Positions 2,726 through 27,037 of a stretch of DNA of 64,000 bases are shown here, in pieces. The notes below the pieces were generated by a model that was given only the letters and a program-made list of their open reading frames with translations, was not told the DNA's origin and made no database searches. The stretch lies in UHGV virus genome UHGV-0171999; one strand, 5' to 3'. Within the stretch, counting starts at the first letter, position 1. The number at the start of each line of letters is the position of its first letter. This DNA is from a virus. A program made the position numbers and the translations under genes.

Positions 2726-2754
2726 TTTACAGAAGGGTAGTAGTGTGATACTAT
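2725..2754 (+). promoter_or_regulatory. T4 early-type promoter
   Basis: GTTTAC at 2725-2730, TGaTACTAT at 2746-2754. Confidence 0.5.
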
Positions 2755-2779
2755 TACCCTATCAACTAAGGAGAATAAA

Positions 2780-3022
2780 ATGAGATTACAACGTCAGAGC
2801 ATTAAAGATTCAGAAGTTAAAGGTAAATGGTATTTTAATATCATCGGTAAAGATTCTGAACTTGTTGAAAAAGCTGAACGTCTTTTGCGTGATATGGGAT
2901 GGGAAGATGAATGCGATGGATGCCCTCTTTATGAGGATGGAGAAAGCGCAGGATTCTGGATTTATCATTCTGACGTCGATCAGTTTAAAGCTGATTGGAA
3001 AATTGTGAAAAAGTCTGTTTAA
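2780..3022 (+). CDS. hypothetical protein
   Basis: 80-aa ORF, AAGGAGA SD. Confidence 0.5.
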   Translation: MRLQRQSIKDSEVKGKWYFNIIGKDSELVEKAERLLRDMGWEDECDGCPLYEDGESAGFWIYHSDVDQFKADWKIVKKSV

Positions 3023-3032
3023 GGAAAATAAT

Positions 3033-3862
<830 letters not shown>

Positions 3863-3882
3863 AATAACACGTGGCGGAAAAT

Positions 3883-4230
3883 ATGAATTTTAATTATTAC
3901 CCTATTCTATTAGAAAAAGACGCGAAACAACCAAAATGGCAGGGTCCTCAGTTTATTAAAGGCGTCTATCAATTAGTAGTTCCTAAAGACAAGATTTATA
4001 GCAGTTGTTTCACTGAATCCGCTTGTAGTATTTTTGGTAATAGTTCTCCGTATTGGAATTTTGATATAAAACTAGATAGAAATATCGATATTTGGTTGAA
4101 AGCTATGGATATTGGTAATATCACGTTTGATGAGAATAATTATCATATTATTGGTCGATTTTCTAAGCGCGGTAAAGAATTATATTTCACGCCTGAAATC
4201 GAAAGAAAATTTGATGCTAAACCGTATTGA
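3883..4230 (+). CDS. hypothetical protein encoded in an insert between frd and td
   Basis: ORF with ATG at 3883 (track start 3871 is GTG); no recognisable motif. Confidence 0.45.
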   Translation: MNFNYYPILLEKDAKQPKWQGPQFIKGVYQLVVPKDKIYSSCFTESACSIFGNSSPYWNFDIKLDRNIDIWLKAMDIGNITFDENNYHIIGRFSKRGKELYFTPEIERKFDAKPY

Positions 4231-4274
4231 TTATTAGCTTCATAAAATGTATTATAATTTATATAAGGTACTAA

Positions 4275-5135
4275 ATGAAACAATACCAAGATTTAATTAA
4301 AGACATTTTTGAAAATGGTTATGAAACCGATGACCGAACAGGCACAGGAACAATTGCTTTGTTCGGTACTAAATTACGCTGGGATTTAACTAAAGGTTTT
4401 CCTGCAGTAACAACTAAGAAGCTCGCCTGGAATGCATGCATTGCTGAGCTTCTATGGTTTATTTCCGGTTCTACCAATGTTAATGATTTACGTCTTCGCA
4501 CTCATGGTAGTCTTATTCAAGGTAAAACTATTTGGGACGATAACTATGAAAACCAGGCTAAAGACCTAGGATATCATAGTGGTGAACTTGGTCCTATATA
4601 CGGTAAACAATGGCGTGATTTCGGTGGTGTGGATCAATTAGTTGAAACTATTGATCGTATTAAAAAATTACCAACTGATCGACGTCAAATCGTTTCAGCA
4701 TGGAATCCAGCTGAAATCAATCAAATGGCATTACCGCCCTGTCATATGTTCTATCAGTTTAATGTGCGTAATGGTTATCTTGATTTACAATGGTACCAAA
4801 GAAGTGTAGATGTTTTCTTGGGCTTGCCATTCAACATTGCCTCGTACGCTGCCTTGACGCATATTGTGGCTAAGATGTGTAATCTTATTCCCGGAGATTT
4901 GATATTTTCTGGTGGTAATACTCATATCTATATGAATCACGTAGAACAATGTAAAGAAATTTTGCGTCGTGAACCTATGGATTTATGCGAATTACAATTA
5001 AAATTTCCAGATGAATTTGATGAATGGAACACAGAATCGCAGGTATTTTGGTTGAGTCAATTCGCAAAGCCGCATAATTTTGTTCTTAACAACTACGTAT
5101 CTCACCCGCCAATTAAAGGAAAAATGGCGGTGTAA
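4275..5135 (+). CDS. td: thymidylate synthase, uninterrupted (no intron)
   Basis: 286 aa contiguous ORF; active-site region MALPPCH; full length in one frame. Confidence 0.95.
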
Positions 5136-20537: not shown

Positions 20538-20806
20538 TGTTTGTCGTTCACACTATTTATGAAAATGAAGGTAATACTACACGTGATTACGGTCACGTAA
20601 ATCAATTTTTTAGATGCAATCCAGAATTCCGAGCTCAAAAAGACGAACGAATTTTTAAAAAATGTGTAGAGCAAGGTTTCATTTACGTCAAGCACTGGAT
20701 GCAAGGAAATAAAGTTAGAACTACATATCATAAGTCTTTGCCTGAGCTTAATGATGAATTGATTTATAATAGAGCTGTAAATCAAACTCTGAAGGATGAA
20801 CAATGA
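20537..20806 (+). CDS. hypothetical protein
   Basis: 89-aa ORF coupled to ligase gene. Confidence 0.45.
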   Translation: MFVVHTIYENEGNTTRDYGHVNQFFRCNPEFRAQKDERIFKKCVEQGFIYVKHWMQGNKVRTTYHKSLPELNDELIYNRAVNQTLKDEQ

Positions 20807-22266
20807 TTCTTAAAATTCTGAATGAAATAGCATCTATTGGACCAACTAAGCAGAAGCAAGCAATTCTGGAAAAGAATAAAGATAATGAATTGCTTAAACG
20901 AGTGTATCGTCTGACTTATTCTCGCGGGTTACAGTATTATATCAAGAAATGGCCTAAACCTGGTATTGCTACCCAGAGTTTTGGAATGCTGACTATTACC
21001 GATATGCTTGACTTCATTGAATTCACGTTAGCTACTCGGAAATTAACTGGCAATGCAGCAATTGAGGAATTGACTGGATATATCACCGATGGTAAAAAGG
21101 ATGATGTTGAAGTTTTGCGTCGAGTGATGATGCGAGACCTTGAATGCGGTGCTTCAGTATCTATTGCAAACAAAGTTTGGCCAGGTTTAATTCCTGAACA
21201 ACCTCAAATGCTGGCAAGTTCTTATGATGAAAAAGGCATTAATAAGAATATCAAGTTTCCAGCCTTTGCGCAGTTAAAAGCAGATGGAGCTCGTTGTTTT
21301 GCTGAAGTTCGAGGTGATGAATTAGATGATGTTCGTCTTTTATCACGAGCTGGCAATGAATATCTAGGATTAGATCTTCTTAAGGAAGAATTAATCAAAA
21401 TGACTGCTGAAGCCCGCCAGATTCATCCAGAAGGTGTGTTAATTGATGGCGAATTGGTATACCATGAGCAAGTTAAAAAGGAACCAGAAGGCCTAGATTT
21501 TCTTTTTGATGCTTATCCTGAAATTAGTAAAGCCAAAGAATTCGCCGAAGTAGCGGAATCTCGTACTACTTCTAATGGAATTGCCAATAAATCTTTAAAG
21601 GGAACTATTTCAGAAAAAGAAGCTCAATGCATGAAGTTTCAGGTCTGGGATTATGTCCCGTTAGTAGAAATATACGGTCTTCCGACGTTTCGTTTAAAAT
21701 ATGATGTACGTTTTTCTAAACTAGAACAAATGACATCAGGATATGATAAAGTAATTTTAATTGAAAACCAGGTAGTAAATAACCTAGATGAAGCTAAGGT
21801 AATTTATAAAAAGTATATTGACCAAGGTCTTGAAGGTATTATTCTCAAAAATACCGATGGATTATGGGAAAATGCTCGTTCAAAAAATCTTTATAAATTT
21901 AAAGAAGTAATTGATGTTGATTTAAAAATTGTAGGAATTTATCCTCACCGTAAAGACCCTACTAAAGCAGGTGGATTTATTCTTGAATCAGAGTGTGGAA
22001 AAATTAAAGTAAATGCCGGTTCAGGTTTAAAAGATAAAGCTGGTGTAAAATCACATGAACTTGACCGTACTCGCATTATGGAAAACCAAAATTATTATAT
22101 TGGAAAAATTCTAGAGTGCGAATGCAATGGTTGGTTAAAATCTGATGGCCGCACTGATTACGTTAAATTATTTCTTCCAATTGCGATTCGTTTACGTGAA
22201 GATAAAACTAAAGCTAATACATTCGAGGATGTATTTGGTGATTTTCATGAGGTAACTGGTCTATGA
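20803..22266 (+). CDS. 30: ATP-dependent DNA ligase
   Basis: 487 aa, same as T4 DNA ligase; adenylation motif KADGARC. Confidence 0.95.
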   Translation: MILKILNEIASIGPTKQKQAILEKNKDNELLKRVYRLTYSRGLQYYIKKWPKPGIATQSFGMLTITDMLDFIEFTLATRKLTGNAAIEELTGYITDGKKDDVEVLRRVMMRDLECGASVSIANKVWPGLIPEQPQMLASSYDEKGINKNIKFPAFAQLKADGARCFAEVRGDELDDVRLLSRAGNEYLGLDLLKEELIKMTAEARQIHPEGVLIDGELVYHEQVKKEPEGLDFLFDAYPEISKAKEFAEVAESRTTSNGIANKSLKGTISEKEAQCMKFQVWDYVPLVEIYGLPTFRLKYDVRFSKLEQMTSGYDKVILIENQVVNNLDEAKVIYKKYIDQGLEGIILKNTDGLWENARSKNLYKFKEVIDVDLKIVGIYPHRKDPTKAGGFILESECGKIKVNAGSGLKDKAGVKSHELDRTRIMENQNYYIGKILECECNGWLKSDGRTDYVKLFLPIAIRLREDKTKANTFEDVFGDFHEVTGL

Positions 22267-22451
22267 AAGCTTACTTAGAAACAATTGTCGTGGCTCAAAA
22301 AGAAGGTGGAGATGTTTCTACTTCTGTATCGCAAATCGTTCTCGAATTTGTAGATGCATATGCTTATAATAAATTCACAGAAACATTTGATGCCTATGAA
22401 AAAGGACCAAAGTTTGAAATATACCGCACTCTCTTACCAATAGATTATTAA
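22263..22451 (+). CDS. hypothetical protein
   Basis: 62-aa ORF, ATGA coupling to ligase. Confidence 0.45.
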   Translation: MKAYLETIVVAQKEGGDVSTSVSQIVLEFVDAYAYNKFTETFDAYEKGPKFEIYRTLLPIDY

Positions 22452-22472: not shown

Positions 22473-22480
22473 TATAAATA
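22473..22480 (+). promoter_or_regulatory. T4 late promoter TATAAATA upstream of alt
   Basis: Exact TATAAATA 21 nt before the alt ATG. Confidence 0.5.
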
Positions 22481-22500
22481 GAATAAACACTAGAGAGGAT

Positions 22501-24597
22501 ATGATGGAACTCATTACAGAATTATTTGACGAAGATACTACTCTTCCGATTACAAACTTAAATCCAAAGAAGAAAATACCGCAAATTTTTTCAGTTCATG
22601 TTGATGACGCAATTGAACAACCAGGCTTTCGTTTATGTACCTATACATCTGGAGGTGATACTAATCGCGATTTAAAGATGGGCGATAAAATGATGCATAT
22701 TGTTCCTTTTACATTAACTGCTAAAGGCTCAATTGCTAAATTAAAAGGTCTCGGTCCAAGCCCAATTAATTACATCAATTCAGTTTTTACTGTTGCAATG
22801 CAAACAATGCGTCAATATAAAATTGATGCCTGTATGCTTCGTATTCTTAAGTCTAAAACTGCTGGCCAAGCTCGTCAAATTCAAGTTATTGCTGATAGAC
22901 TTATCCGTAGTCGTTCAGGCGGCAGATACGTCCTTCTTAAGGAACTCTGGGACTATGATAAAAAGTATGCATATATTCTTATACATCGCAAAAATGTATC
23001 ACTAGAAGACATTCCAGGAGTTCCAGAAATTAGTACCGAGCTCTTTACTAAAGTTGAATCGAAAGTCGGTGATGTTTATATCAATAAAGATACCGGAGCT
23101 CAAGTAACTAAAAATGAGGCAATTGCAGCATCTATTGCGCAAGAAAATGATAAACGTTCTGACCAAGCTGTAATCGTTAAAGTTAAAATTTCCCGTAGAG
23201 CAATTGCACAAAGTCAATCGTTAGAATCTTCTAGATTTGAAAGTGAATTATTCCAGAAGTATGAATCTACCGCAGCTAATTTCAATAAACCTGCTACCGC
23301 TCCTTTAATTCCCGAAGCAGAAGAAATGAAGCTTGGAATTAATTCATTAGCTTCTAAAACTAAGGCAGCAAAAATCATTGCCGAAGGAACTGCAGATGAA
23401 CTTCACTATGATTATAAATTCTTTTCAAAAAGTGAGGTTAATGAAGTTTCTGAAAAAATTAAAGATGTAATTCTTAATGCGATTAAAAATGAACCGACTA
23501 CTTCAATAAAATGTTTAGAGAAATACGCAGCAGCTGTTAATCAACTCTTTGAAGAATATAAAGATAATTGGCTTGATAAACATAATAAAACACGTAAAGG
23601 ACAGCCAGATGAAGTCTGGGAAGAAATAACTAAAAATTCCTGGAACGCAGCAAAAACTAAATTCATCAAAAGAATGATTTACAGCTTTTCTGGAATTGGT
23701 GCAGGTCCAATGATTGATATTACTATTGCCCGCGATGGTTCTAAATATACTCCATCACAAAAGCGCGGCATTAGAGAGTATTGTGGTTCAGGATATACTG
23801 ACATCAATAATCTTCTTTTAGGACGCTACAATCCAGAACGATATGATGTAATGAGTGAAAAAGAAATTGAATCTGCTATAAATAACTTAGATTCAGCTTT
23901 TGAAAATGGTGACCGTATACCAGAAGGCATTACAGTTTATCGTGCTCAAAGCATGACTGCTCCTATATACGAAGCACTAGTTAAAAATAAAGTGTTCTAT
24001 TTCAGAAATTTTGTATCTACTTCTTTAACTCCTATCATTTTTGGACGTTTTGGAATTACACATGCTGGTATTGGTCTTTTAGAACCAGAAGCTCGTAATG
24101 AATTAACAGTTGATAAAAATGAAGAAGGAATAACTATTAATCCAAGCGAAATAAGAGCGTATAAAGAAAATCCTGAATACGTTAAAGTTCAAATAGGATG
24201 GGCAATTGATGGAGCTCATAAAGTTAATGTTGTATATCCAGGAAGTCTCGGAATAGCAACAGAAGCTGAAGTAATTCTACCACGCGGATTGATGGTCAAA
24301 GTCAATAAAATAACTGATGCTTCTAATAATGATGGAACAACATCTAATAATACAAAACTCATTCAAGCTGAAGTTATGACTACGGAAGAACTCACCGAAT
24401 CAGTCATTTATGACGGTGACCGTCTAATGGAAACTGGTGAAGTAGTTGCAATGACAGGTGATATTGAAATAGAAGACAGAGTTGACTTTGCATCATTTGT
24501 TTCATCAAATGTTAAACAAAAAGTAGAATCATCTCTTGGAATTATTGCATCTTGCATAGATATTACAAACATTCCTTACAAGTTCGTTCAAGGATAA
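22501..24597 (+). CDS. alt: Alt ADP-ribosyltransferase (virion-packaged)
   Basis: N-terminus MELITELFDEDTTLPITNLNPKKK; C-terminal ART motifs YRAQ, FVSTSL, EAEVILPRG; tandem ATG at 22501 and 22504. Confidence 0.85.
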   Translation: MMELITELFDEDTTLPITNLNPKKKIPQIFSVHVDDAIEQPGFRLCTYTSGGDTNRDLKMGDKMMHIVPFTLTAKGSIAKLKGLGPSPINYINSVFTVAMQTMRQYKIDACMLRILKSKTAGQARQIQVIADRLIRSRSGGRYVLLKELWDYDKKYAYILIHRKNVSLEDIPGVPEISTELFTKVESKVGDVYINKDTGAQVTKNEAIAASIAQENDKRSDQAVIVKVKISRRAIAQSQSLESSRFESELFQKYESTAANFNKPATAPLIPEAEEMKLGINSLASKTKAAKIIAEGTADELHYDYKFFSKSEVNEVSEKIKDVILNAIKNEPTTSIKCLEKYAAAVNQLFEEYKDNWLDKHNKTRKGQPDEVWEEITKNSWNAAKTKFIKRMIYSFSGIGAGPMIDITIARDGSKYTPSQKRGIREYCGSGYTDINNLLLGRYNPERYDVMSEKEIESAINNLDSAFENGDRIPEGITVYRAQSMTAPIYEALVKNKVFYFRNFVSTSLTPIIFGRFGITHAGIGLLEPEARNELTVDKNEEGITINPSEIRAYKENPEYVKVQIGWAIDGAHKVNVVYPGSLGIATEAEVILPRGLMVKVNKITDASNNDGTTSNNTKLIQAEVMTTEELTESVIYDGDRLMETGEVVAMTGDIEIEDRVDFASFVSSNVKQKVESSLGIIASCIDITNIPYKFVQG

Positions 24598-24600
24598 ATC

Positions 24601-26658
24601 ATGGAACTTATTACAGAATTATTTGACGGCGCTTCGGCGCCGGTTGTTAACTTAAATCCGAAGCATAAAATACCTCAAATTTTTGCTATTCAAGCAGGCG
24701 AAGAAAGTGTGCTTCCTGGATTTAGATTTTGTACATACACCTCCGGTGGTGATACAAATAAAAACGTTAAACCAGGCGATAAAATGATGCATATCGTAAT
24801 GATAGGTGTCAACGAAAAATTATCATTAGTCAAACTTAAAAACTTGGGTGGAAATCCAATTGGTGTCATTAATGCGGTTTTTGATACTGCTCTTCAAACA
24901 ATGAAACAGTATAAAATTGACGCATGCCTATTCCGCGTACTAAAAAGTAAAACAAATGGCGCAGCTCGTCAAATGCAAGTTATTGCTGACCGTTTAGTAC
25001 GTACTAAAGGAGCAGGTCGATATGTTCTTTTAAAGGAAATCTGGGACTATGATAAAAAGTATGCATATATTATGGTTTACCGTAAAAATGCTAATTTAGA
25101 AGACATTCCAGGTGTACCTCCTATTTCAACAGAGCTATTCACAAAAGTTGAATCAAAGGTCGGTGATGTTTATGTAGACGTTAAAACAGGTAATGCTGTT
25201 CCTAAAGCTGTCGCAGTTGCTGCTTCTATTGCTTTGGAAAATGATAAACGTACTGATCAAGCGGTTATTCAGAAAACTAAAATCAGTCGTCGATTAGCAG
25301 CACAAGCTCAATATTCTACTGTCGATGCTTCGCTCCAGGGTGATAGCTTCGCTGCCAAGAAATATCAAGAGTTTGAATCTAAAGTTCCGGTATATAAAGC
25401 AGAAGGACCAATGAACTCTGGTGTTATTCAGATTGGTTCCAACTTCAGCAAAGGAGCTATCGGTGGTATGAGAAGTGCTTCTCGTTTTAAATCTAACGAT
25501 TATGAACTAGAAAGCTTCCGAAATCATATTGCATTGGCCCATGCGCGTTTACGTGACCCATCTATCAAGCTGCAGAGCGATATAACATATCAAGGTTCTC
25601 AAGAATATTTAAAGAATAAAGAATTCTTTGATTATAAAACTGATAAAATTTTAAGCGATCTTGCTGACATTAATATTTCTAATAGCTTTGATGTTATTAA
25701 GAAAATTGTCAATGATTTAGTTAAAGGTTCTAAAGCCACGCCAGATGAAAAGGTAGCTATTGTTCAATTTGTCATGAATGGCATTTATAAATTGATTAAT
25801 GAGTCTGCTTCTCAAGCGTATGAATATGCAAGTACTGAAGTACCCCCAAAAGGATTAACTCAGGCTGAGTCCGATGTAATTGAAGATTATTGTGCAGATT
25901 CATATGTTGAAATGAACTCGTTCCTTTTGGGTAAACCAGATTCTACCCGTGAAGAATACATGGAACGAGCTATTAAACACATCGAGACAATGGATTCTGC
26001 CTTTGCCAAAGGATCAGTTCTTCCTCCAGGAACTACACTTTACCGTGGGCAAGAAGTTACCTTTAAAACTTTACGTCATAATATTGAAAATAAAATGTTC
26101 TATTTCAAGAACTTCGTATCCACATCGCTTAAACCAAATATCTTCGGTGAGTATGGTAAAAACTATATGGCTCTAGATGATTCCGGAACAGTATTTTCTG
26201 GTGAAGGAGAAGGTTCAGTTGATGCTGAAGATTTAATGCATATGGGTAGTCATTCTGCATATGCTAATGAAGATGCTGAAACTAGCGTAGGTATGGTAAT
26301 AAAAGGAGCTGAGCGAATTAAAGTTATCGTTCCAGGTCATTTATCAGGATTTCCATCAGAAGCTGAAGTTATTTTACCACGTGGAATTTTGCTGAAGATT
26401 AATAAAGTGAGCACGTATATGATGAAAGAAACTGCTTATAACAAGTATTTAATCGAAGGCACAATCGTTCCTCCTTCTGAACAATTAGAAGAATCGGTAT
26501 ATGATGGTGATCATCTAATGGAAACTGGTGAAGTTCGTCCAATGGCTGGATTTAATCAATTCCTTGTAGAAGAATCAAAAGAAGAGGAAAACGAAGTTTC
26601 TCAAATCTTGGCTTCTTTGGTTAACATCAACGGAATGTCTAAAAAGTTCAAGATGTAG
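24601..26658 (+). CDS. Alt-like ADP-ribosyltransferase paralog
   Basis: 685 aa, 3 bp after alt; conserved N-terminal region; ART motifs YRGQ, FVSTSL, EAEVILPRG intact. Confidence 0.8.
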   Translation: MELITELFDGASAPVVNLNPKHKIPQIFAIQAGEESVLPGFRFCTYTSGGDTNKNVKPGDKMMHIVMIGVNEKLSLVKLKNLGGNPIGVINAVFDTALQTMKQYKIDACLFRVLKSKTNGAARQMQVIADRLVRTKGAGRYVLLKEIWDYDKKYAYIMVYRKNANLEDIPGVPPISTELFTKVESKVGDVYVDVKTGNAVPKAVAVAASIALENDKRTDQAVIQKTKISRRLAAQAQYSTVDASLQGDSFAAKKYQEFESKVPVYKAEGPMNSGVIQIGSNFSKGAIGGMRSASRFKSNDYELESFRNHIALAHARLRDPSIKLQSDITYQGSQEYLKNKEFFDYKTDKILSDLADINISNSFDVIKKIVNDLVKGSKATPDEKVAIVQFVMNGIYKLINESASQAYEYASTEVPPKGLTQAESDVIEDYCADSYVEMNSFLLGKPDSTREEYMERAIKHIETMDSAFAKGSVLPPGTTLYRGQEVTFKTLRHNIENKMFYFKNFVSTSLKPNIFGEYGKNYMALDDSGTVFSGEGEGSVDAEDLMHMGSHSAYANEDAETSVGMVIKGAERIKVIVPGHLSGFPSEAEVILPRGILLKINKVSTYMMKETAYNKYLIEGTIVPPSEQLEESVYDGDHLMETGEVRPMAGFNQFLVEESKEEENEVSQILASLVNINGMSKKFKM

Positions 26659-26711
26659 TTTACAAGTCTCTCGTGTTGTGTTATAGTAGACTTACTGACA
26701 TAACATGAGGA
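26658..26711 (+). repeat. 54-bp promoter-leader direct repeat, copy B
   Basis: Matches 11389-11442 at 53 of 54 positions; begins on the G of the alt-paralog TAG stop. Confidence 0.85.
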
Positions 26712-26718
26712 ACACAAA

Positions 26719-27009
26719 ATGAAATCTTCTTTGCGCTTTTTAGGTCAAGAACTTGTAGTTGAAGGCGTTATTCCTGTTGATAACGCTTTTAATGAAGCAG
26801 TTTATGATGAATTCATTAAAATTTTCGGAACCGATAAAAAGTTTGGAATTTTTCCTTCTGAAAATTTTTCAAAGCCAGAACAGACTGAAAGTATTTTCCA
26901 AGGTGTAGTAACAGGTAAATTTGAGTCAGAAGCTCCGGTAAAAATTGAAGTTTATATTGAAGACAGTTTAGTTGCTTCAGTTGCTGCTTTTATTTCATTC
27001 CGTAAATAA
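26719..27009 (+). CDS. hypothetical protein
   Basis: 96-aa ORF fed by repeat copy B. Confidence 0.5.
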   Translation: MKSSLRFLGQELVVEGVIPVDNAFNEAVYDEFIKIFGTDKKFGIFPSENFSKPEQTESIFQGVVTGKFESEAPVKIEVYIEDSLVASVAAFISFRK

Positions 27010-27015
27010 AAATAT

Positions 27016-27033
27016 GGGGACCTTTCGGTCCCC
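27016..27033. terminator. Bidirectional terminator between convergent genes
   Basis: GGGGACC-TTTC-GGTCCCC with T-rich flanks on both strands. Confidence 0.65.
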
Positions 27034-27037
27034 ATTG

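Follow-up and report, generated by a model that had tools for sequence, protein, structure and literature searches.

A second intact alt-type gene, Alt2, beside alt in a T4-like phage, and its possible role as a capsid-delivered ADP-ribosyltransferase

Among phage enzymes injected into the host together with the DNA, Alt is the textbook example, and it has been studied almost entirely in T4. The UHGV virus genome UHGV-0171999, a stretch of 64,000 nt (the whole of which is referred to as 'the window'), carries two adjacent genes of the alt type, which raises the question of whether the second, Alt2, encodes another injected effector with targets of its own or merely repeats the first. The open reading frames (ORFs) were taken from a program-made list. 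The window originates from a Tequatrovirus (T4-like) phage, and the region is the T4 gene 30/alt/gene 54 segment, in reverse orientation by the T4 annotation. The two genes, and the regions of their products including the ADP-ribosyltransferase (ART) domains, are as follows.

22504..24597, + strand: ORF1, 697 aa (698 aa from the ATG at 22501), the alt orthologue, '697-aa' allele
ORF1 regions: N-domain, residues 1–238; helical centre, ~239–412; ART domain, ~413–630; conserved C-terminal tail
24601..26658, + strand: ORF2 (Alt2), 685 aa, a paralogue of alt
ORF2 regions: N-domain, residues 1–238 (Pfam PF26846, Tevenvirinae_ADPRT); helical centre, ~239–415; ART domain, ~416–625
ORF2 catalytic residues: R482, S507-T-S509 and E587-A-E589, followed by a C-terminal tail with YDGDHLME and, directly after it, TGE

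The initial annotation had described two ORFs of 698 and 685 aa on the same strand, 3 bp apart, with conserved N-terminal and diverged middle regions, and this description holds in every part. The ORFs occupy 22501..24597 (counted from the first ATG) and 24601..26658, with 24598–24600 between them. BLASTP aligned their products with 40 % identity over 718 columns (E 2e-158), far past chance. The N-terminal 238 aa are 68 % identical and contain all the motifs that had been quoted as conserved, whereas residues ~239–412 gave no BLASTP match and reached only 10–20 % identity in the alignment; the ART domains are ~35 % identical. The catalytic motifs read VYRAQ in ORF1 and LYRGQ in ORF2, with FVSTSL and EAEVILPRG in both. 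Each protein thus has a six-residue, propeptide-like start ending in I-T-E, a family-specific N-terminal domain of ~230 aa, a helical centre (wholly different in the two), an R-S-ExE ART domain and a conserved C-terminal tail with L-M-E.

PHROG 802 ('Alt-like RNA polymerase ADP-ribosyltransferase') covers both ORFs over their full length (E 2e-272 for ORF1 and 5e-255 for ORF2), and both lie above the curated cut-off of 23.4 bits of the Pfam family ADPrib_exo_Tox (PF03496), ORF1 with 129.3 bits (E 1.5e-37) and ORF2 with 72.8 bits (E 3e-20). PF26846 is recorded for homologues that are 96–98 % identical and for the chimeric genes described below. An alignment of 15 sequences from both paralogue clades showed no variation at R482, S507, S509, E587 and E589 of ORF2, and in 56 distant members of the family conservation at these residues was 90 % or higher. 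A structure model was made for ORF2. This AlphaFold2 model had a mean predicted local distance difference test score (pLDDT) of 77, the ART region lying mostly at 70–90 with a dip to the mid-50s at ~511–520, and Foldseek matched it in the PDB to Vis, Certhrax, C3bot, VIP2 and CDTa (probability 1.00, E 8e-9 to 1e-4). For ORF1, sequence matches to CDTa and iota toxin (E 4e-4) were obtained in a structure-sequence search. Neither ORF matched a solved Alt or Alt2 structure by sequence, ORF2 giving no match and ORF1 matches to toxin ARTs only.

The C3, VIP2, iota, CDTa, Vis and Certhrax toxins (PF03496) share the catalytic fold and motifs with the phage proteins (ORF2 TM-score 0.55–0.68, target-normalized), but they are only 12–20 % identical to them, and the phage proteins differ in an added N-terminal extension of ~410 aa (family domain and helical region), a large segment inserted between STS and ExE and a propeptide-like C-terminal tail. 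The E-x-E form of the motif is associated with arginine-specific enzymes of the R-S-E clade. ORF2 thus appears to be an intact Alt-family ADP-ribosyltransferase with a predicted ART fold, for which transfer to arginine is predicted. The call of two intact Alt-type ARTs made in the initial annotation is borne out by Pfam, PHROG 802 and the catalytic motifs, and the ORF2 model folds like known ARTs.

Judging from its coding sequence, ORF2 evolves under strong purifying selection. An intact copy was seen in all the genomes examined, and against its orthologues in T2, RB3, Ac3, Sf22 and YUEEL01 the ratio of non-synonymous to synonymous substitution rates (dN/dS) was 0.04–0.05 at dS 0.22–0.28, remaining below 0.12 in each of four regions and falling to 0.00–0.03 in the N-domain. 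Between ORF1 and ORF2, in contrast, the N-domains have a saturated dS of ~1.3 (omega 0.22), and the longest exact stretch of DNA common to the two ORFs is 32 nt. The duplication of alt and Alt2 is old; recent gene conversion as the source of the N-domain likeness was rejected for this genome in view of the saturated dS.

Could the second protein reach the host by the same route as Alt? The cleavage motif of the T4 prohead protease gp21 is L/I-x-E. Motifs of this type are found near both ends of both proteins, as I-T-E at residues 4–6 in each and as L-M-E at 641–643 in ORF1 and 639–641 in ORF2. E6 is invariant, with L/I-x-E at positions 4–6 in 15 of 15 aligned sequences, and E641 is likewise invariant in that alignment, mostly in an L-x-E context; ORF2 keeps both the MELITE start and the YDGDxLME-TGE tail. 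Cleavage at both predicted sites would leave a mature ORF2 protein of ~70 kDa. T4 Alt is a component of the prohead core, with ~40 copies per head; gp21 removes a propeptide from each of its ends, and the protein is ejected along with the DNA (PMC9026906, PMC2988021). We regard packaging and injection of Alt2 as a well-founded inference from these shared sequence elements. The Alt-family N-domain was also considered as a general capsid-delivery module that might be attached to other cargo, and this was rejected: in an exhaustive HMMER search it was found in 69 clusters, only at residues ~1–240 of proteins of ~600–710 aa, and 54 of the 56 N-domain-bearing proteins scanned possessed PF03496.

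Two elements would serve expression of the pair.

22473..22480, + strand: late-promoter consensus match TATAAATA, 20 nt upstream of ORF1, just past the hairpin behind alt.1
24591..24595, + strand: Shine-Dalgarno-like AAGGA for ORF2, within the last ORF1 codons, 5 nt before the ATG at 24601

Under the mechanism that we propose, the TATAAATA promoter in front of ORF1 would drive late transcription of both genes, with ORF2 translated from its own ribosome-binding site. Both proteins would enter the prohead core via their common N-terminal part, would be trimmed at both ends by gp21 and would be ejected into the host with the DNA, where each enzyme would ADP-ribosylate arginines on a different set of host proteins, the choice of targets being set by the diverged centre together with the variable loop that separates STS from ExE. 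As the packaging determinant is common to both, Alt and Alt2 probably compete for the ~40 Alt positions per head. That Alt2 is a second capsid-delivered arginine-specific ART with targets of its own is the account that we consider somewhat the most probable.

The T4 late-promoter consensus is well established, and the promoter function of the copy at 22473 is deduced from it. T4 has the same arrangement of promoter and hairpin upstream of alt. Within the window TATAAATA has 18 matches against ~9 expected. A second copy lies inside ORF1 (23877–23884, + strand), 717 nt upstream of ORF2, and could either give a separate ORF2 transcript or be a chance match. At the junction of the two ORFs no terminator-like site was found on the + strand, nor any sigma-70-like site above the weak 9/12 level, and the annotation of phage Ac3 puts a ribosome-binding site where ORF2 has its AAGGA.

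ModA and ModB of T4 act early within the infected cell, and of the alternatives the one that survives best is that Alt2 is an active but unpackaged ART that modifies proteins of the host or the phage in the cell late in infection. A late transcript would place Alt2 in the cell at that stage in any case, and the literature yielded no proteomic sign of Alt2 in virions; however, the whole Alt N-domain has been kept, at a dN/dS of 0.00–0.03 between orthologues (0.22, with dS saturated, when the two paralogues are compared), as have both gp21-type motifs, and genes joining an Alt N-domain to an Alt2 effector occur in viable isolates, which suggests that the N-terminal parts are interchangeable. We therefore consider this alternative unlikely.

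Evidence on whether the two enzymes do different things comes from a transposon study (HIDEN-SEQ) of Bas37 (KarlGJung, a BASEL phage, MZ501089), in which the genes are named 'Alt' (bas37_0033) and 'Alt2' (bas37_0032); ORF1 is 99.1 % identical to the former product and ORF2 98.8 % to the latter. The values used here are those of sheets S2, S6 and S8 of Extended Data Table 7 of the preprint (10.1101/2025.11.20.689424), to which all results in this and the next paragraph refer. T4 Alt is required to evade the Mokosh type I defence, and the Bas37 Alt allele, which is the allele of the window, is weaker and no substitute for T4 Alt against it. In the reference library 164 of 179 TA sites were hit in Alt (0.92) and 116 of 164 in Alt2 (0.71), and the genes are classed as 'Non-essential' and 'Intermediate', respectively. 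Mean reads in K-12 were 203.6 for Alt, 44.5 for Alt2 and 169.7 for alt.-3; insertions in Alt2 were thus ~4.6-fold under-represented relative to Alt.

In K-12 dRM with Mokosh type I, Alt insertions were lost (log2 fold change −7.74, from 213.1 to 0.0; adjusted p 0), whereas Alt2 insertions increased (log2 fold change +1.32, from 41.6 to 105.3; adjusted p 0), Alt2 being among only four significant genes on the Mokosh sheet. In the native Mokosh host CFE331 the log2 fold change was −1.56 for Alt and +0.12 (not significant) for Alt2. The parts of the preprint text to which we had recourse carry no comment by its authors on the Alt2 phenotypes, and no paper was found that discusses the opposite Mokosh phenotype or the recurrent chimeras. 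The opposite transposon phenotypes argue that the two enzymes are not redundant, and with this backing a second effector with a different target, as had been suggested in the initial annotation, is the best inference. The numbers also fit a model in which loss of Alt2 frees packaging positions for Alt; alternatively, Alt2 activity may itself aggravate Mokosh.

These phenotypes bear most directly on the proposal that Alt2 is a redundant copy of Alt, maintained only for dosage or as a backup and with an identical set of targets, among them RNA polymerase alpha Arg265. Alt and Alt2 do agree in architecture and in the arginine-type ExE motif, T4 does without Alt2, and the phages PST and ECML-134 do without the Alt effector. 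Nevertheless, no similarity was detectable between the centres, identity between the ART domains reaches only ~35 %, each type is conserved separately (dN/dS ~0.04), and, in the preprint data, disruption of Alt in Bas37 is lethal under Mokosh type I despite an intact Alt2, disruption of Alt2 has the opposite sign, and even the two Alt alleles are not interchangeable. Redundancy is accordingly improbable. It is equally improbable that Alt2, in place of classical protein ADP-ribosylation, modifies a substrate other than protein (for example RNA or DNA) or, like T4 ModB, links NAD-capped RNA to proteins.

Several points weigh against Alt2 as a second delivered effector in competition with Alt. 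No virion proteomics or enzymology covering Alt2 was found in the literature; T4 is fully viable without it, so Alt2 is dispensable in at least some backgrounds; and ORF2 lacks a late promoter of its own, co-transcription with ORF1 being deduced. The Mokosh comparison appears to rest on one replicate file and the enrichment of Alt2 insertions is absent in the native host CFE331, and the low insertion counts in Alt2 could stem from toxic truncation products and not from loss of function. With these points in mind, the fuller proposal, that Alt2 has its own host targets and competes with Alt for packaging, that the Alt/Alt2 ratio in the head tunes the outcome of defence and that the two genes form a recombining two-cassette locus, is offered only tentatively.

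How does this gene relate to what is present in T4? T4 Alt (NP_049811, 682 aa), a packaged and injected arginine mono-ADP-ribosyltransferase, resembles ORF2 in architecture, in the N-domain (68 %) and in the gp21-type and ART motifs, but its centre is unrelated. ORF2 is 41 % identical to T4-type Alt proteins and is not the orthologue of T4 alt; its T4 counterparts are alt.-1 and alt.-2. Only three short ORFs, alt.-1 (61 aa), alt.-2 (67 aa) and alt.-3 (96 aa), follow alt in T4, which thus lacks a full-length second copy, in agreement with the initial annotation, in which only short alt.-N ORFs were given for T4. The products of alt.-1 and alt.-2 align almost residue for residue with ORF2 residues 1–118 (the 5' ~348 bp), and the PHROGs of these fragments (23015 and 15247) match ORF2 (E 2e-40 and 3e-38) far better than ORF1 (1e-21 and 2e-19). 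The DNA of T4 tracks ORF2 to position 24948 of the window and picks it up again at 26639, and a direct repeat stands at both ends of the missing stretch.

24940..24948, + strand: 9-bp direct repeat CTAAAAAGT, left copy, at the left end of the stretch that T4 lacks
26639..26647, + strand: 9-bp direct repeat CTAAAAAGT, right copy, at the right end of the T4 deletion

Since both endpoints fall within the 9-bp CTAAAAAGT repeats, T4 evidently lost 1,699 bp by a deletion between short direct repeats; in addition, a frameshift near codon 55 splits alt.-1 from alt.-2. The T4 record (NP_049810, NP_049809) calls the fragments 'an old duplication of the first part of gene alt'. On the sequence comparison they are better read as the remains of a full-length paralogue, and ORF2, with its near-identical start, is the intact form of the gene left in T4 as alt.-1/alt.-2.

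A different rearrangement was found in phages with a single alt-family gene. Some ORF2 homologues have the centre and ART domain of Alt2 behind an N-domain that ranges, from one homologue to another, between the Alt2 and the Alt type. Three metagenome contigs with such chimeras have one alt-family gene between alt.1 and alt.-3, and the complete genomes of Yersinia phage PST and Escherichia coli phage ECML-134 likewise have a single gene there; the complete genome of SCS4 gave the same single collinear match.

2742–4802 of the extracted locus, in both PST and ECML-134: single chimeric gene, Alt-type at the 5' end and Alt2-type over the rest

The chimeras were at first suspected to be assembly artefacts, as the best complete-genome matches of one contig were all two-gene phages and the longest stretch shared by the ORFs is so short. 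This explanation was dropped in view of the same layout in the complete PST, ECML-134 and SCS4 genomes and of the clean single crossovers: at the sites that distinguish ORF1 from ORF2, the five chimeras scored (PST, ECML-134 and the three metagenome contigs) each show one clean switch from Alt to Alt2, at five different positions. By this pattern the chimeras arose when the ~700-bp N-domain repeats recombined unequally, which deleted the Alt effector and kept that of Alt2, and the PST gene annotated 'alt' carries an Alt2-type effector. Four states of the locus were thus observed: the 697-type Alt with Alt2 (window, T2, RB3 and Bas37), the T4-type Alt with Alt2 (YUEEL01), the T4-type Alt with an Alt2 remnant (T4) and a single Alt-N::Alt2 chimera (PST and ECML-134).

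The alt gene itself is also variable. ORF1 is the positional orthologue of T4 alt, with the same neighbours and R-S-ExE motifs, but represents a distinct allele. The two proteins are 98–100 % identical over the first 238 residues, 17–32 % over residues ~273–412, 60–75 % in the ART domain and 85–90 % in the C-terminal tail. The dS between the window and T4 alleles was 0.12 in the N-domain and 1.4 in the centre (centre dN 0.65), a difference by which the alt locus is mosaic. The centre of ORF1 (23218–23740) indicates that alt has at least two deeply diverged centre/ART alleles behind an identical N-domain. The T4-type centre was found in 175 phage records and DNA of the window-type allele in ~330, including T2. 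Judged by these comparisons, ORF1 is an alt orthologue with a different, common effector allele.

The start of ORF1 consists of two adjacent ATGs (ATGATGG, 22501–22506), as it does in T4. A Shine-Dalgarno sequence, GAGAGGA, ends at 22499 (GAGAGGA-T-ATG-ATG-G), and because of the spacing from it the second ATG (22504, 697 aa) is favoured. Annotations differ, the second ATG being used in T4, T2 and RB3 and the first in Bas37 and Ac3; a propeptide of seven residues, the length given for Alt in a review, would fit MMELITE.

On the + strand the order of genes is DNA ligase gene 30 (20803–22266), alt.1, ORF1, ORF2 and alt.-3, with genes 54 and 48 converging from the − strand. The position of the pair between gene 30/alt.1 and alt.-3/gene 54 is identical in T2, RB3, Ac3, Sf22, YUEEL01 and Bas37. 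The conserved neighbours are:

22263..22451, + strand: alt.1, 62 aa, upstream neighbour (Pfam Phage_blade PF24647, E 1e-29)
26719..27009, + strand: alt.-3, 96 aa, downstream neighbour (DUF5498)

The start of alt.1 overlaps the stop codon of the ligase gene (ATGA), and directly 3' of alt.1 lies a terminator-like hairpin, aaaggccttcgggccttt, which the terminator scan did not report. An early-type promoter-like site for alt.-3 spans 26659–26687 (TTTACA, 17 nt, TATAGT, with TG before the second hexamer), and a bidirectional terminator common to alt.-3 and gene 54 lies at 27014–27035. Mutants of T4 with C-terminal extensions of Alt.-3 escape the CmdTAC defence (PMC11618068), and the Bas37 alt.-3 orthologue is depleted in E. 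coli CFT073 (log2 fold change −2.70, adjusted p 0.02).

The novelty implied in the initial annotation did not survive, as ORF2 corresponds to a conserved alt-like gene that is already annotated. The 4.8-kb region matches 543 phage records, 340 of which cover at least 80 % of it, and the effector half of ORF2 is present in 402 phage records at 93–98 % nucleotide identity, including T2, RB3, RB7 and RB27. In RefSeq both genes are labelled 'Alt-like RNA polymerase ADP-ribosyltransferase' in hundreds of genomes. Bas37 Alt2, the gene named 'alt.-2' in ime09 and RB3, and the unnamed second gene of T2 are the same gene as ORF2, at the same position and with the same 3-bp spacing; in Sf22 a note sets the gene apart from T4 Alt. 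Both PMC1524935 (2006) and PMC13600099 (2026) refer to the duplication, the latter with 43 % identity between the paralogues. Searches of the literature for 'Alt2', a second alt gene or two-gene virion proteomics returned passing mentions only; no paper was found that combines 'Alt2' with ADP-ribosyltransferase and phage, and PMC12373910, on injected anti-restriction proteins, does not treat Alt. The gene pair is therefore already known, named and widespread, and Alt2 is uncharacterized.

If the fuller proposal is true, Alt would be required under Mokosh type I while loss of Alt2 would be advantageous, and the locus would be reshuffled by replacement of the Alt effector allele, by Alt-N::Alt2 collapse or, as in T4, by deletion of Alt2. 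Most T4 relatives carry an intact and strongly conserved Alt2, and many have an Alt allele unlike that of T4, which makes T4 the unusual case for Alt biology. Generalizing from T4 on host takeover and counter-defence (RNA polymerase, MazF and Mokosh) overlooks one putative injected effector, and Alt2 points to a gene that is uncharacterized yet experimentally tractable.

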